A DNA stretch of 64,000 nucleotides from Myxococcota bacterium. GTDB taxonomy: Bacteria > Myxococcota_A > UBA796 > UBA2385. Below, piece after piece: positions 50,391 to 58,307 of the stretch. Each line of letters opens with the position of its first letter. Positions within the stretch are counted from its first letter, which is position 1. Location of the stretch: contig JBIJDH010000005.1 in NCBI GenBank assembly GCA_044344255.1, positions 192,001 to 256,000 of the forward strand. The letters run 5' to 3'. The translations under genes and the position numbers were made by a program. The notes beneath the pieces are model-generated. The model was not told the origin of the DNA. It did no database searches and saw only the letters and a list, made by a program, of their open reading frames with translations.

Positions 50391-52832
50391 TCACAGGCTC
50401 CGCGCGAGGCGGAAGCCGGTGTCCACTCGGCGTTGGAGAGGCTCGATCTGATAGCGCGCGTCCGCCCGACACGAGCGCTCGAGGAAGCACCAGGCGCCGC
50501 CCTTCGCCGTTCGAAAGCGCGGGTTCTCCATGGGGTCTCGGAGGGGGCGGCCCTCGCGGCTGAGCGGCGGGCCCTCTGGCCGGAAGGGGTCGGAGCACCA
50601 GCAGGTCACGTTGCCGGCGAGGTGGCGGATCCCGTAGGGGCTCTCGTCCTGCGGGTGCGCGTGGACAGAGGCGGGGAAGGGCTTGTCGGGCCGGCTGTCG
50701 CGCATGGCGCTGAACGTGGGGTCGAAGAAGTCGCCCCACGGATAGACCCGCCCGTCCACCCCCCGCGCCGCCTTCTCCCATTCGAGCTCGGTGGGCAGGC
50801 GATAGGGGAGGCCTGTCTCTGCCGCGAACCAGGCCGCATAGGCGACGGCGTCCTCCCAGCTCACCAGGAAGACGGGCAGGTCGGCGGTCCAGAGGTCGCC
50901 GTCGCGGTCGGGCACGAGGGAGAAGCCGCCGTCGGCCCTTCGGCCATACGCGGGCTCGGTGGCCCCCGGCGGGCGGGGCGCGTGGTGCAGGGCCCGCGCC
51001 GCGTCTCCTTGTCGCACGAGCGCGTCGAGGAAGGCGATGTAGTCGCCGTGGGTGACGGGGAGGCGCTGGAGCGCGAAGGCGTCGAGCCAGACGCGGCGCC
51101 GGGGGAGGGCGGCCCGCACGGTGGGGTCTGTGCTCCCGGACAGGAACCAGCCGGCGGGGACGTATCGCTCCTCGGCGCGGAGCTCACCCTCGGCGAGGAG
51201 GCGGATGGGCACCGCCTCGCCGCCTTCGGGGGGTCGGGTGTCGGCCTGCTCCTGCCGGCCGACATGGAGGGGGAGGGCGGTGGGGACCCGCTCCGGGTGG
51301 TCGATCTGCAGGCGATAGCTGCCCATCGGCACCGGGACGGCCCGCAGGGGGGTCACTCCGAGCTTGCGGAGCTCCTCGGGGATCAGCCTGCGACCGATCT
51401 CCTTGTACCGATACACCGTGACCGTGGCGCCCGCCGGCTCGGTGGAGAGGCTGAGGCTGCCCCGCCCGTCCAGCCAGGCCTTGTGCAAGCCGCGGTCGTA
51501 TTCGCGCACCAGGAGGGCGTATCCAGCGGCGGCGGGGGTGTCTCCGGCGGCCTCGGCCCGCTCATGGAGGCGTCGGTACCAGTCGGCGAGGCGGTCGGAG
51601 GCCTCGGGGAGGCCGGGCTGGACGTTGCAGGCGGCGCGCAGCGTCTGCTGGTAGCGGATCTCGGCGAGGCGGGCCTCGGTCTCGAGGCGGGTGGCCTCGT
51701 CTTGTCGAGCCCAGGCGGGCTCCTTGGCCTCGACCGGGTCGCTCGGCTTCACGGCGCGGAGGCTCTCCGCGGCGGCCTCCCGGTTGCGGCGGGCGCGGTC
51801 CTCGAGGTCGCCCAGGCGGGCGATGATGGCGTCGGCGTCGGTGACGAGCCCGAGGGCCTGCTCGCGGCGGCGGGCCCCGTCGAGGAAGGCCGCGAGCTCT
51901 TGGGCGAGGGCGCCGGCGTCGGGGTAGCGGAAGCGGGGGTCAGGGTCCATCGCCCGCGACCAGATGTCGACCAGCCCATCGGGCACCTCGGCGAGGGAGG
52001 CGCCGCTCGGGTCGTTCGGGAGGGTGTCGGTGCACATCCAGGCGAGGATGGCGCCGAGGGCCCAGACGTCGGCGGGGGGCCCGACGGTGAGGCTCTGCTG
52101 CTGCTCCGGGGCCATCCAGGCGGGGGTGCCCGGGCTGAGGCCGTCGCGGGTGAGGGAGGCGGCGCGGCCCAGCTCGCGGGCCGCGGGGTGGTCGCGGTCC
52201 GGCTCGTGGAGGATCTTGGCGATGCCCCAGTCGAGCACCAGCACCTCGCCGTAGCCGCCGAGCATGATGTTGCCCGGCTTGAGGTCGCGGTGCACCACCC
52301 CGCGGGCGTGGGAATAGGCCATCGCCTCGGTGGCGCGGTGAAAGGCCTCGAGCAAGCGTCGAAAGGTCCAGCCAGAGGGGGAGGGCTGCCAGTGGCCGTC
52401 GCGGATCGCGCCTTGCACCTCGGCCACCACCTCACCAAGGGTGCGCCCCTGCACCTCCTTCATCGTGAAGAAGAGGCGGCCGTCGTCGAGGACGCCGATG
52501 TCGTGCACCGGCACGATGCCGGGGTGCTGGAGGTTGGCCGTGGCCTGGGCCTCCTGGAAGAGGCTGGAGACGAGGGAGGGGTCGTGGGAGCGGTCGGGGC
52601 GCACCACCTTCATCGCCACCATGCGGCGCAGCGTGTGGTCCCAGACCCGCCAGACCTCGCCCATCCCGCCGCGCCCGAGCACGCCGCGGCGCTCATAGCG
52701 GCGGTCGGGGTCGACCTCCAGGCCGCGGGTGGCGCCGTCTGGGTCGGCCGCCGGGCGGGTCGTCGCGGGGGCGGCCGGCGGCGTCTCCTCGTCGGACAGG
52801 GCGCCCCAGAGGGTGTCCCGCGGGTCGCTCAA
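50391..52832 (-). CDS. Ser/Thr kinase + PEGA-like + FGE-sulfatase (C-type lectin fold) domain protein
   Basis: [63 protein letters not shown]. Confidence 0.92.
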
Positions 52833-55630
52833 TCGAGCCTCGGCGAGAGGGTGTCCCGCAGGCGCTTCGGCAGCCGGTCGCAGGCGGCCCGGGCATCGGG
52901 CTGTCGTCGGAGCTCCGCCACGAGCTCCGCGCGGAGCGCCTCATTGTCCTTGTGTTCGACCAGCCGGCCGCAGTCCTGGGTGGGGTGGACCGTGTCGAGG
53001 CGCCGGCCGAGCCAGCCGATCAGCGGGTCCTCGCTGATCTTCCGGGCGAACTGTCGAACGTGGATCGCGAAGGCGCCGCCGGTCTCGAACCAGGTGCGGA
53101 GGAGCCGGATGAAGGCCTCCCGCTCGGCGACGTCGAGGCCGCGGTAGCCGCGCTCCCCGTCTCCGTCGCCGGCGACGGCGGAGGGCACGCCGAGCGTCTC
53201 GGCGACGGCGTCGGCGCCGCTGCGCTGGATGAGGCGGGCCGCGAGGTCTTCACGGGCCAGGGCCCCCTTGAAGACGAAGAGGCGGAGCAGGACCTGCTCC
53301 CCGTCACCGGAGAGGAGGCGGAGCTCGGCGGCGGGGCCGACGTCGACGGAGCGCTCGGGCAGCAGGGCGAAGGCGAGCGGGTCGTTCGCCCCCCAGACCT
53401 CGATGGGCAGCTCGAGCTCCGGCAGGGCGTGGATCTTCAGCCCCTCGCCTGCGTGCTGGATGACAAGGTGAGCGCGGGCGAGCTGAGGGAGCAGGTCGAG
53501 GCGCAAGAAGGCTGGCTGGTGGCTGCCGAGGAGCTCGTGGAGGGCGTTGGCGCGGCGCTTGAGGCGGGCCGCCACCTCGGGGGGCGTGTGGGGGCCGGGC
53601 TCGAGGTCGCGGAGGCTGCTCGCCCGCCCGATGACGAGGGCGCCCTCCCGAACCACCTGATGGAGACCCTGAACCCGCCCGTCCTCCCCTCGGGAGGGGA
53701 ACATCAGGACCTCGAGGGGGGCCCGACCGCTGTCCTGGACGAGGTGGGGGAGGCGGGCCTCGAGGTTGGTCAGATCGACCACCCCCTCGATGTTGTGGCG
53801 CACCGCCTCCATCGCGTGGTCGAGCTCGGTGTAGTGGCCCCACCAGGCGCGGTGCTCGAGCACGGCCAGGGCCCGGCTGCGGATCGGTCGCCCGGCGAGC
53901 GAAGCCAGCACGGCGGAGCGGAGGGCGCGCGGATCGCGCTCGTTCAGGGCCGGCACGCGGAGGGTGACAGCGCGCAGGCGGTGGACCTCGTCACGGCGGA
54001 GGGGCCAGAGGCGCTCCCAGTCCTCCTCGGGGTCCGCGCTGGTCAGCAGCAGCGGCACCGCCCTGCGGGCCGCGGGGGCCAGGGGTCCGAGGTGCTCGGG
54101 GCCGATCGGCGCGCCCCCCGACTCCACCGACGCCGTCTCGATCACCTGACGGAGCTCGCGGATGTTGCCGGGCCAGGGCCAGTCCTGGAGGAGCGTCATC
54201 GCATCGGGGTCGATCTCCGGCGCGGGCCAGCCCGAGGCCGCGCTGAGCTCCTGGAGGAAGTGCTCGACCAGGAGGGGGATGTCCTCGGGGCGGTCGCGGA
54301 GCGGAGGGAGCCAGAGCGCGGCGCCGGGGTTGAGCCGGTAGAGGAGGTCCTGGCGGAAGGTGCCCCGTCGAATCTCCCCCTCGAGGTCGGCGTTGGTGGC
54401 GGCGACGATACGAACGTCGACCGGGAGCGCGCGGCTCCCGCCCACCGGAAGCACCTCCCGTTGCTGGATGGCGCGGAGCAGCTTGGCCTGCAGCGCCAGC
54501 GAGAGGTTGCCGAGCTCGTCGAGGAAGAGGGTGCCGCCGTGAGCCTCCTGGAAGCAGCCGCGGTGGTCGCGGGCGGCCCCGGTGAAGGAGCCCTTGACGT
54601 GGCCGAACAGCTCGCTGTCGATCAGCGCCTCACTGCGGCTCGAGAGGTCGATGGCGACGAGGGGTCCGCTGCGGCCGGAGAGCGCATGGATGGCCTCGGC
54701 CATGCTCTCCTTCCCGACGCCCGTCTCGCCGCGGATGAGGACGGGGAGCGCGCTCCGGGCGAGGCGGACGGCGCGGTCGAGCACGCGGCGGGTGGCGGCG
54801 CTCTCCCCGATGATCGCCGCCAGCTCGGGGCGGGGCGGGCGGGGCGGCGCGGGGGTCGTGTCGGGAGGCGGCGACCAGCCCTCCCCGTCGAGGGCGAGGC
54901 GGGCGCGCAGGGGCTCGAGCCAGCCCGGGTCGAGCTGGCCGGGCTCCTCGAAGAGCACCCAACGGCCACCCTGCACGCGGTCGGGCTGGGGCGCGCGGAT
55001 GACCGACAGGCCGGCGGTGGGCTCGAGGGCGGCCTGGGCCCAGCGGACGAGGCTGCGCTTGCCGCTGCCCGCGGGGCCGGACAGGGCGATGAGGCCGGCG
55101 GCGCGGCAATGGGCCAGCAGGCTGCGCCGCAGGGGCGCGAGGGAGGGGTCAACGGCGACGCGGTGGTGCTGGTCGAGCCATGCGAGCTGGCGGGCGAGCG
55201 CGCTCGGGACCCCGACCCGGGCGGCGCCGGGCGTGGTCAGGAAGAGGCGGATCTGTCGGCCCCGGGCCTGTCGGGCGAGCTCCTCGCGGGGGGCGAGCGC
55301 CTCCCAGCCGGGGCCGAGCAGCAGCCAGCCGCCCGCCGCCTGCTCGAGGACGTCGGTTAGCTCGGGCCCATCGAGGCGGCAGCCGCTCGGGAGCCAGGCG
55401 GGGTTGACGTGGACGAGCGCCCGCCAGCGGGCCTGCGCCGAGAGCCAGGCCCGGTACATCCAGCGCACCAGCACCACGGGCTCGAGGCCCTCGGCCGGGG
55501 GGAGGTCGGCGGCGCCCGTCTTCCGCCCCTGCTCGGCCATCCGATCGAGGGCCGCCACCAGCGCGGGGGCGGCGTCGAGCGCGGGCTCGGTCGGGGTGGG
55601 GAACCAGTCGGGTGGCGGAGGGATGGACAT
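52829..55630 (-). CDS. Atypical sigma54-interacting AAA+ regulator (933 aa)
   Basis: GETGVGKE, SELFGHVKGSFTGA, LFLDELG, WPGNIREL. Extra degenerate AAA segments and an FHA-like region; no obvious HTH. Confidence 0.88.
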   Translation of the reverse strand: MSIPPPPDWFPTPTEPALDAAPALVAALDRMAEQGRKTGAADLPPAEGLEPVVLVRWMYRAWLSAQARWRALVHVNPAWLPSGCRLDGPELTDVLEQAAGGWLLLGPGWEALAPREELARQARGRQIRLFLTTPGAARVGVPSALARQLAWLDQHHRVAVDPSLAPLRRSLLAHCRAAGLIALSGPAGSGKRSLVRWAQAALEPTAGLSVIRAPQPDRVQGGRWVLFEEPGQLDPGWLEPLRARLALDGEGWSPPPDTTPAPPRPPRPELAAIIGESAATRRVLDRAVRLARSALPVLIRGETGVGKESMAEAIHALSGRSGPLVAIDLSSRSEALIDSELFGHVKGSFTGAARDHRGCFQEAHGGTLFLDELGNLSLALQAKLLRAIQQREVLPVGGSRALPVDVRIVAATNADLEGEIRRGTFRQDLLYRLNPGAALWLPPLRDRPEDIPLLVEHFLQELSAASGWPAPEIDPDAMTLLQDWPWPGNIRELRQVIETASVESGGAPIGPEHLGPLAPAARRAVPLLLTSADPEEDWERLWPLRRDEVHRLRAVTLRVPALNERDPRALRSAVLASLAGRPIRSRALAVLEHRAWWGHYTELDHAMEAVRHNIEGVVDLTNLEARLPHLVQDSGRAPLEVLMFPSRGEDGRVQGLHQVVREGALVIGRASSLRDLEPGPHTPPEVAARLKRRANALHELLGSHQPAFLRLDLLPQLARAHLVIQHAGEGLKIHALPELELPIEVWGANDPLAFALLPERSVDVGPAAELRLLSGDGEQVLLRLFVFKGALAREDLAARLIQRSGADAVAETLGVPSAVAGDGDGERGYRGLDVAEREAFIRLLRTWFETGGAFAIHVRQFARKISEDPLIGWLGRRLDTVHPTQDCGRLVEHKDNEALRAELVAELRRQPDARAACDRLPKRLRDTLSPRLD

Positions 55631-56537: not shown

Positions 56538-57257
56538 TCACGTCTTGGACCGGTTGCGCTGCCGCTCGGGGAGGACCTGCACGAAGCCCCCGTCCTTCTG
56601 CTTCGAGAGGCGCTCGGCGGCGGCGACGGCGGAGGCATCGACCTTCCAGCCGTGCAGCACCCCGGCGATGCGGAAGAGGTCGGCCTCGTCGCCCTCTTCG
56701 CCCTCGTGGTGTCCCGGGCCGCCTTGCGCCGACCGGCCGGACTCGGGCCTCCTGACCGCCTCGATCTGCGCCGTGTTGTCTTCCGACTCGTTGATCAGGG
56801 CCTTGATCCTGTCGTTCGAGTCTCCGAGCTGGCGGGTGAGGCTGGCGAGCAGCACCCGCCGCATCGCGGTGCCGCGCGGGGTCGCCTCCGAGACGAGGGT
56901 GCCGTAGGTGCGTCGGTCGAAGGCGGCGACGGTGACGGCCCCTTCGGCCGTGCAGGTGGCGCTGCGCGGCGAGTTGTCCACGAGCGACATGTGGCCGACC
57001 AGGGCCGGCGCGCTCATCGTGGTGAGCGCCCGCGCCCGGCCGACGTGGTCGCGGCGGGTGACTCGGATGGAGCCCTTCAGGAGCACGTAGAGCGAGTCGC
57101 CGGTCTCTCCCTCCGTGCAGAGGATCTCGTCCTGGACGAGCTTTCGGAAGGACCCCATCGCCAGGACGAGGGCGAGGCTCTGGCCGGTCACCCCTGGGCT
57201 CGGGTGGACCACCAAGAAGCGGTCCGAGATGGTTCGGAGCTCTTCGGGGCTCAACAT
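56538..57257 (-). CDS. Cyclic-nucleotide-binding domain protein (no HTH)
   Basis: EGETGDSLYVLLKGSIRV, GHMSLVDNSPRSATC. Confidence 0.85.
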   Translation of the reverse strand: MLSPEELRTISDRFLVVHPSPGVTGQSLALVLAMGSFRKLVQDEILCTEGETGDSLYVLLKGSIRVTRRDHVGRARALTTMSAPALVGHMSLVDNSPRSATCTAEGAVTVAAFDRRTYGTLVSEATPRGTAMRRVLLASLTRQLGDSNDRIKALINESEDNTAQIEAVRRPESGRSAQGGPGHHEGEEGDEADLFRIAGVLHGWKVDASAVAAAERLSKQKDGGFVQVLPERQRNRSKT

Positions 57258-57793
57258 CAGCCACCTCCAAACAGGGAGCGCAGGCGGTCGCGCAGGGTGG
57301 GCTTGGCTTCGTCCGGGGCGGGCTCGGGCGCGGACTCCGCCTTCCAGACCTGTTGGATGGCCTGGTTGGTGCGGCGGATTCGCCGGGCCAGGGTGCCGAG
57401 CAGGTATTGCTCCAAGGCGGCGATGGCGGGGTTGTTCGCCGCGGCGTCGAGGAGGGTGGGGGTGATGAGCAGGGCGACCGAGGGCTCGGCGGCGGTCACG
57501 GTGGCGCTGCGGTGGCCGCCGGGGTGAAACAGCGCCTGCTCCCCCAAGAGCTCGCCTGGGCGAATGTCACCGATCGAGCGGCTCTCTTTGCCCGAGGCCG
57601 AGTAGACCGTGGCGATCAGCTTGCCCTCGACGAGCAAGAGCGCGACGTCTGCGTCGGTGCCTTGGCGAAACACGAGGTCTCCGGCCTTGAAGGTGACCGG
57701 TGGGGCTGCGATGAGCAGCGCCTCAAGGCTCGGGCGGGGCACCGTCCCGAACATATAGAGGCGGCTCAGCTTCTCGACGTCGGACATGAACAT
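57257..57793 (-). CDS. Cyclic-nucleotide-binding domain protein (no HTH)
   Basis: GDLVFRQG, LVEGKL, GELLGEQALF...RSATV. Confidence 0.85.
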   Translation of the reverse strand: MFMSDVEKLSRLYMFGTVPRPSLEALLIAAPPVTFKAGDLVFRQGTDADVALLLVEGKLIATVYSASGKESRSIGDIRPGELLGEQALFHPGGHRSATVTAAEPSVALLITPTLLDAAANNPAIAALEQYLLGTLARRIRRTNQAIQQVWKAESAPEPAPDEAKPTLRDRLRSLFGGG

Positions 57794-57818
57794 TGCCTCG
57801 GGGTCTGCGCCGGGGAGC

Positions 57819-58307
57819 TCAGCTGGCCCGACCTGGCCATGCGGCGCGGATCGTCCAGCGGGGCCCGCGCTCCAGCAGGAGCACGCTCGCGTAGTGATGA
57901 ACCGGCACGGAGACCGGAGGGGGACCATACCGCTCTTGGAGGGACACGATCAAGGGATGGTGTCCGATGATCGCCGCGTTGGAGGCCATGGGGTCCCCCA
58001 TGAGGACCTCCCACTCCCGCTCGTCTTCGAGCGTGGTGGGCAGCGCCTGTCGGCGGACTTCGGGGAAGACCTGACCGACCGCCTCGGCGGTCTCCCGGGT
58101 GCGGCGCGTCGGGCTATGGAGGAGCAGGGTGGGGTGGAAGCCCTGCCCCTTGAGCCATTGGCCGGCCTCTTCGGCCATCCGTCGCCCGGCGGGGGTGAGG
58201 CCGGGGTCCGGCTGCCCTGCGAAGCGCTCCCCGTGTCGCATGACGGCTACCCTCACCCTGCGATGCGGCATGTCGGCCCCCGGCTCCGTGTAGCCGGTCA
58301 CCCGCAT
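57819..58307 (-). CDS. sixA: Phosphohistidine phosphatase SixA-like
   Basis: MRHGE, LTPAG, HSPTRRTRETA, IGHHP. Confidence 0.75.
   Translation of the reverse strand: MRVTGYTEPGADMPHRRVRVAVMRHGERFAGQPDPGLTPAGRRMAEEAGQWLKGQGFHPTLLLHSPTRRTRETAEAVGQVFPEVRRQALPTTLEDEREWEVLMGDPMASNAAIIGHHPLIVSLQERYGPPPVSVPVHHYASVLLLERGPRWTIRAAWPGRAS

Follow-up and report, generated by a model that had tools for sequence, protein, structure and literature searches.

An intact sigma54-activator AAA+ domain between two halves of a degenerate homolog: an apparently undescribed bEBP layout

Why a complete sigma54-activator ATPase domain should lie in the middle of a protein whose flanks look like pieces of that same domain is the question raised by one gene in the window, the 64-kb stretch of DNA analysed here. 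The gene (52829..55630, minus strand) is an open ORF for a 933-residue protein, P0001, and every motif quoted in the preliminary description was found in the ORF translation at the place given for it. Pfam recognised only the central domain of P0001, with Sigma54_activat (PF00158) at residues 273-434 (198.7 bits, E 7e-59) and the lid PF25601 at residues 445-516 (80.8 bits, E 7e-23); an AAA+ domain with lid was present in 16/16 members of set A1. The closest solved structures in the PDB, namely ZraR, NifA, NtrC1 and PspF, matched over the central stretch only, and the 25 listed matches to NCBIfam bEBP equivalogs (NifA, NorR, RtcR, AtoC, NtrC, PspF and others) were all below their cut-offs and confined to the core. 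These Pfam and PDB matches, together with the catalytic set, delimit an intact inner domain at residues 272-516 (54083..54817, minus strand). All six of its catalytic residues (the Walker A Lys, the DE of Walker B, two arginine fingers and the sensor II Arg) are present in P0001 and in 84/93 family members, and the GSFTGA of its L1 loop lies at residues 347-352 (54575-54592, minus strand). By every sequence test of the core, P0001 is a bEBP, with an inner domain that holds all the residues for ATP hydrolysis and sigma54 contact. We noticed that inner strand b2 ends in Asp at residue 328 of P0001 (VDL), as it does in 55/59 members, where the ordinary-bEBP consensus has Asn (VNC).

The degenerate outer copy

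To either side of the inner domain, profile-profile comparison (hhalign), with 59 full-length members set against 23 ordinary bEBPs from this genome, recovered half of a second AAA+ domain, with a probability of 95.7 (E 1e-8) for residues 155-250 and of 97.9 (E 6e-13) for residues 522-632; joined, the halves aligned over 197 collinear columns with a probability of 99.2 (E 3.5e-19), as compared to at most 1.7 for the controls (reversed plus 15 column-shuffled profiles per region). In a PDB search with a profile of the C-terminal part alone, the top matches were NifA (E 2e-4) and NtrX (E 1e-3). These data bear out the earlier proposal of an intact AAA+ domain flanked by two complementary degenerate halves, with some redrawing of boundaries: the first half starts near residue 157, with helix a0, and not at 180, the second extends to about residue 628, and the FHA-like region falls at about 636-795. 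The first half, region B (residues 157-246; 54893..55162, minus strand), comprises a0, b1, the P-loop GPAGSGK, a1, b2, b3 and a3 without the L1/GAFTGA loop, while the second, region C (residues 524-628; 53747..54061, minus strand), comprises b4, a4, b5 and the lid, with degenerate arginine fingers and sensor II. The first ends past helix a3 and the second opens at strand b4, with no overlap between them. In bEBPs, the segment between a3 and b4 is the L2 or pre-sensor-1 loop (PMC7175178, PMC7973254). By alignment, then, the inner domain and the Pro-rich linker leading into it (residues 247-271; 54818..54892, minus strand) occupy the L2 site of the outer copy. The spacing is tightly kept, with a median of 34 residues from outer a3 to the start of the inner domain (range 29-46, n=59) and of 13 residues from the inner lid to outer b4 (range 8-15 in 59/59). 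The domain-in-domain insertion claimed previously thus holds as a layout, but insertion as a historical event is indistinguishable from two local duplications meeting at one loop.

The outer copy also lacks L1, as exemplified by a median of 18 residues from b2 to b3 vs. 43 in the inner domain. A Walker A Lys with an acidic Walker B is found in the outer copy of 17/93 members, falling to 2/93 if the sensor II Arg is included, and position 191 of the outer copy is Arg in 42/93 and Lys in 38/93. Judged by residue content, the outer copy is dead, since neither of the loops for sigma54 contact is present and most catalytic residues are gone; the inner domain is active by the same criterion, as in the active/inactive AAA pair that had been suspected. 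Conserved across the family are the P-loop glycines, the lid motif and the hydrophobic strand patterns of the outer copy; since the glycines are kept, binding of nucleotide or phosphate by the outer copy stays possible.

This conservation bears on what the pseudo-domain does. We favour a regulatory role (below), and a positive scaffold, in which a second dead ring or brace stabilises the active ring and permits activation without an enhancer-bound HTH, seems to us unlikely. The conserved glycines, lid motif and strands are what a scaffold would call for, as is the lack of a Fis-type HTH in these proteins, for which there are precedents among bEBPs (PMC3162934). Against it, arginine fingers and sensor II work across subunit interfaces and are poorly kept in the outer copy, and the inner domain retains its own ring residues and should need no brace.

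As to whether the two halves fold together, we consider it probable that they form one pseudo-AAA+ domain holding both ends of the inner domain. The check proposed in the preliminary description, that the flanks score as one domain once joined, went against it in P0001: with residues 255-520 removed, the protein scored 17.6 bits vs. 21.4 bits for the second half alone, using an HMM of the ordinary bEBPs of this genome and not the Pfam model. With this HMM, a single domain spanning the junction was seen in 0/59 joined members. Natural bEBP-like domains lacking L1 and L2 matched the joined halves with a probability of 99.5 over 195 columns, almost without gaps, and an HMM of such L1-less domains gave one junction-spanning domain in 32/59 joined members, with a gain of more than 3 bits in 28/59; in the controls, the reversed order gained in 0/59 and region A joined to C spanned the junction in 7/59. 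The match of these L1-less templates to region C is partly circular and inflated because 9 of the 12 came from a scan for a region-C motif. P0001 itself gained nothing on joining with either the ordinary-bEBP or the L1-less HMM.

Covariation between the halves is suggestive. Among the top 100 pairs, B-C pairs numbered 8 vs. 3.3 expected, comparable to pairs within domains; the only other between-domain classes above expectation were A-B (4 vs. 2.3) and core-E (10 vs. 8.3), while A-C (2 vs. 2.5), B-core (1 vs. 8.1) and core-C (4 vs. 8.9) fell below it. The best pair, 175-528, showed repeated change on the tree, with 4.7 changes in the same way vs. 0.1 in the opposite way over 7 independent pairs (p 0.06), the pair having been chosen from the same data. 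In a comparison of independent pairs for an aromatic residue at 528 in outer b4, columns 175, 195 and 227, all in region B, ranked 1, 2 and 5 of 662, with 175 preselected. By homology, column 175 falls at the end of a0, column 195 in helix a1 and column 227 in strand b3, and a0, a1 and b3 are the expected surroundings of b4 in the domain geometry. Pair 222-527 gave p 0.125. A charge pair, 186-563, had p 4e-6 at first, but it traced to a single clade and vanished under tree correction.

These results also weigh on a different arrangement, to which we give slightly less credence than to the scaffold, wherein the halves arose as separate partial duplications and no single domain forms per chain, with C pairing with A, or B with C between subunits, or each half packing on the inner domain. 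The lack of any gain on joining in P0001, a single sequence, would fit this arrangement, as would the score of 98.0 for A joined to C and a member, P0096, that seems to retain only b4 of region C; furthermore, sequence cannot distinguish intrachain from interchain pairing. However, B and C adjoin one and the same loop from its two sides and share no part of the domain, whereas b4 is present in both A and C, and the covariation excess is found in B-C and is absent from A-C, B-core and core-C. We retain the single split pseudo-domain as the preferred reading. Region A itself (residues 40-135; 55226..55513, minus strand) is a weak third AAA-like remnant comprising only strands b1-b4, and is the least conserved domain of the protein. 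It had been placed at about residues 95-135 and is in fact longer, and its hhalign match is weak, with a probability of 78 (E 1.8e-5) against the family core and of 9 against ordinary bEBPs.

The inner domain and its family

In the L1 loop of the inner domain, G[AS]F[TS]GA was present in 62/93 members, with exact GAFTGA in 50/93, leaving 31/93 without G[AS]F[TS]GA. A sigma54 gene was found in 11/11 carrier genomes checked, which is weak evidence because there was no non-carrier control, and a search of the 64-kb window for the -24/-12 consensus gave 0 matches vs. 2.2 expected. One might therefore suppose that the family no longer activates sigma54 and that its ATPase or scaffold serves some other kinase-linked job, in the manner of TyrR, DhaR or VpsR. 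The degenerate GAFTGA in those 31 members would agree with such a role, together with the weak cores of two members (P0079 and L040), the fully degenerate relatives that keep the layout (L106 and L107), the lack of an HTH and of a sigma54 promoter consensus in the window; the well-kept motif in two thirds of members and, weakly, the sigma54 genes of the carriers speak against it, and we regard the loss of sigma54 activation as improbable. Action on sigma54 remains our preferred reading of the inner domain.

The family was assembled from a profile search of 1.84 billion representatives, of which 57 full-length proteins were taken from the best 150 matches and, with P0001 and P0003, formed the 59-row set; with genome loci and partial proteins included the set grew to 106 rows, and removal of those more than 90% alike left 93. 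Of these 93, 70 have all five non-core regions, 11 have no match to the weak N-terminal region, and the remainder are fragments or lack the FHA domain. Full-length homologs, for which a search had been advised, thus proved plentiful, with 5 further paralogs in this genome (6 copies in all), each of full length and at 37-46% identity, and at least 93 non-redundant members overall. Word-indexed protein searches returned 2 members each and were too insensitive for counting. A profile of the C-terminal part was found in 29/182 genomes of the window's class and in 7/301 across the phylum, with all 7 in that class. Among named carrier records, 4 are labelled Myxococcota or Myxococcales and 8 are labelled Alphaproteobacteria, proteobacterium, Planctomycetota or Enterobacterales; we infer that the carriers belong to an uncultured myxobacteria-related class and hold the non-myxobacterial labels to be suspect. 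A search of named genomes for related loci found none, and a motif scan yielded 44 loci, 9 of them with family genes. In a tree of the cores, 27/29 family members formed one clade (support 0.985), apart from the tandem multi-AAA proteins, and the other two were long branches elsewhere.

With 5 full-length paralogs this diverged, carriers in 29/182 genomes of the class and controls at or below 1.7, a misassembled gene or a chance resemblance of motifs, the former raised as a concern in the preliminary description, can be dismissed, as independent diverged copies exist.

Several variants were seen alongside the full-length members. Two loci in one genus (L106:5060-8218, minus strand, and L107:5184-7277, plus strand) have recognisable C and E regions and no match for the inner ATPase or FHA domain, apparently an all-dead version. 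At L027, L028, L029, L094 and L105, the ORF of the family gene holds the later regions only, presumably owing to a frameshift, stop or contig end upstream. Tandem arrays of two or three complete sigma54-activator AAA+ domains are found in many proteins (P0059, P0063, P0070, P0074, P0080, P0086 and others), some with an FHA domain between them.

The C-terminal part, its kinase neighbours and a proposed mechanism

Residues 636-795 (53246..53725, minus strand) gave no Pfam FHA match in P0001. Against FHA clusters in the ESM Atlas, this stretch had a feature score of 0.90 and predicted-model TM values of 0.52-0.56, supporting an FHA fold on the strength of these models and upholding the FHA-like region of the preliminary description. 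The phosphothreonine-binding motifs of FHA domains are G-R and S-x-x-H; here they correspond to G668-R669 and S/A718-R719-x-H721, separated by a long insert. R669 is kept in 86/93 members, S718 in 81/93, R719 in 84/93 and H721 in 65/93, with the phosphate-binding Ser replaced by Ala (718) in P0001 itself; the later conserved Asn of FHA domains was not seen in the family. The linker after the FHA domain contains Thr in 59/59 members and is enriched in this residue (7.6% vs. 4.1% overall and 4.0% in the other linker), and Thr812 (53195..53197, minus strand) is a candidate phosphorylation site by virtue of this enrichment.

No Fis-type HTH was detected, as had been claimed, with none of the 59 members searched (52 scored) exceeding 3.4 bits, as compared to more than 15 bits in 29/31 ordinary controls. 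In the place of the HTH lies region E (residues 829-925; 52856..53146, minus strand), a conserved, probably helical domain with E836, Q885, R889, N896 and P921 as conserved residues. The last 100 residues had no usable match in the ESM Atlas, PDB or Pfam, and in the class search region E occurred almost only within the nested-activator family. Most likely, region E stands in for the HTH and binds either DNA or some partner. The FHA domain is cleanly absent in four members (L039:7485-9779 and L104:5928-8492, both plus strand, P0032 and P0096), in which region C leads to region E via 11-21 residues; in P0096, apparently only b4, the first strand of region C, is kept. In addition, two short separate ORFs with region E (L034:14741-14974, plus strand; L103:1356-1865, minus strand) lie within a few kb of a complete gene of the family and may be fragments or stand-alone partners.

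Next to the activator in the window is a gene for a Ser/Thr kinase fused to an FGE-sulfatase-like domain by Pfam (50391..52832, minus strand), the probable TTG start of which overlaps the TGA stop of the activator. Its catalytic motifs are intact, with DWG replacing DFG, and it has no strongly hydrophobic segment. A kinase domain lies within 4 kb of 5/6 copies in this genome, in three different orientations, and of 15/35 other loci, as compared to 10% of random positions and 5/28 other bEBP ORFs in the same genome. Of the other loci, 20/35 have no kinase within 4 kb, several of these being truncated at the end of a contig, and among the 15 positives 3 are weak; this proximity is an enrichment and not a rule, because paralogs and kin are not independent. 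Ten of the kinase neighbours are kinase-FGE fusions. One genome (G000) harbors 17 kinase-FGE fusion genes, of which 4 lie next to a nested activator. The hydrolase upstream of the activator is not a conserved neighbour (56 neighbours compared at E 1e-12). Upstream of hydrolase and activator, two adjacent cyclic-nucleotide-binding proteins are encoded on the same strand (56538-57928, minus strand). PADLOC matches were to generic AAA+ and kinase domains, and for this reason we claim no defence role.

Taken together, we propose a sigma54 activator that is gated by phosphorylation and carries its own dead twin, a proposal that as a whole we hold to be evenly poised between right and wrong. Its steps would be as follows: 1) the inner domains probably form the usual ring and remodel sigma54-RNA polymerase, as their residues suggest; 2) the dead outer domain would clamp both ends of the inner domain; 3) a partner Ser/Thr kinase would, with somewhat better than even likelihood, signal via the FHA domain, which would bind a phosphothreonine, either one carried by the kinase or, in cis, linker Thr812; 4) the pseudo-domain may be the regulatory module, keeping the inner domain from a productive ring until the FHA switch moves it, a step to which we give a little under an even chance. 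We thus infer both autoinhibition and kinase control, which had already been raised as possibilities; nothing in the data favours either sign of regulation. In its most specific form, the AAA+ enzyme would run through the pre-sensor-1 loop of a dead homolog to give an active ATPase and a pseudo-ATPase in covalent linkage, with the pseudo-domain as a phospho-switched internal gate on ring assembly, operated by a latch of FHA domain and linker Thr, and the HTH would be replaced by a new type of domain for binding DNA or a partner; this full version we put forward tentatively.

Since the layout is kept in more than 90 diverged members, it has some function. Proteins are rarely built by placing a domain inside its own dead homolog. 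If the pseudo-domain gates ring assembly, it would be a new form of regulation of an AAA+ motor and a tractable link between a Ser/Thr kinase and sigma54, and region E is a candidate for a new DNA-binding module. bEBP architectures have been catalogued from Pfam hits, and Pfam sees only the core of P0001; fragments scoring under the thresholds of HMMs can conceal whole domains in 'known' regulators.

Comparison with known systems

With the sigma54 bEBPs NtrC1, ZraR, NifA and PspF (AAA+ clade 6), the inner domain shares GxxGxGKE, a GAFTGA-type L1, L2, Walker B, sensor I, arginine fingers and sensor II. Unlike these, the nested family adds a split dead copy on both sides, a third remnant, a C-terminal FHA domain and an extra terminal domain. 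The nested layout is absent from the four basic bEBP architectures and from the R-C-D scheme set out in PMC3162934 and PMC7175178, respectively. A literature search, with most subscription papers and some key bEBP papers outside its reach, found no description of it. We could not find a split dead AAA+ copy around an active one described, and it is apparently a new bEBP layout; loss of the HTH alone is already known. CtcC, FlgR and FleT are bEBPs without an HTH (PMC3162934); these are short, whereas the nested family has about 650 extra residues, among them the conserved terminal domain, itself a possible DNA binder.

The L1-less bEBP-like domains of the Pfam Sigma54_activ_2 type are continuous, in contrast to the outer copy, which is interrupted by about 275 residues that include the active domain. 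The tandem proteins (P0070, P0074 and P0059) also have more than one AAA+ module, but as whole domains end to end, with cores outside the family clade. HrpR/S are hetero-oligomeric bEBPs. The same holds for VnfA1/VnfA3 (PMC9542535), and such systems share with the nested family multiple AAA+ modules acting together.

As regards kinase signaling, the nested family resembles the FHA-bEBPs of Myxococcus xanthus in combining an FHA domain with a sigma54 AAA+ domain in a kinase-rich bacterium. Jelsbak et al. (2005) reportedly found those proteins to have an N-terminal FHA domain, a single AAA+ domain and a C-terminal Fis-type HTH, and proposed a coupling of Ser/Thr kinases to sigma54. The nested family is not of that architecture, as its FHA domain is C-terminal (636-795) and divergent, its AAA+ domain is nested and a Fis-type HTH is missing. 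A parallel in arrangement is seen in the FHA switches GarA/OdhI and Rv1747 (PMC8339232), which have a Thr in a flexible linker beside the FHA domain and an adjoining Ser/Thr kinase gene. The nested family resembles these in linker Thr, FHA domain and kinase gene, with phosphorylation of Thr812 and its binding in cis being proposed here.
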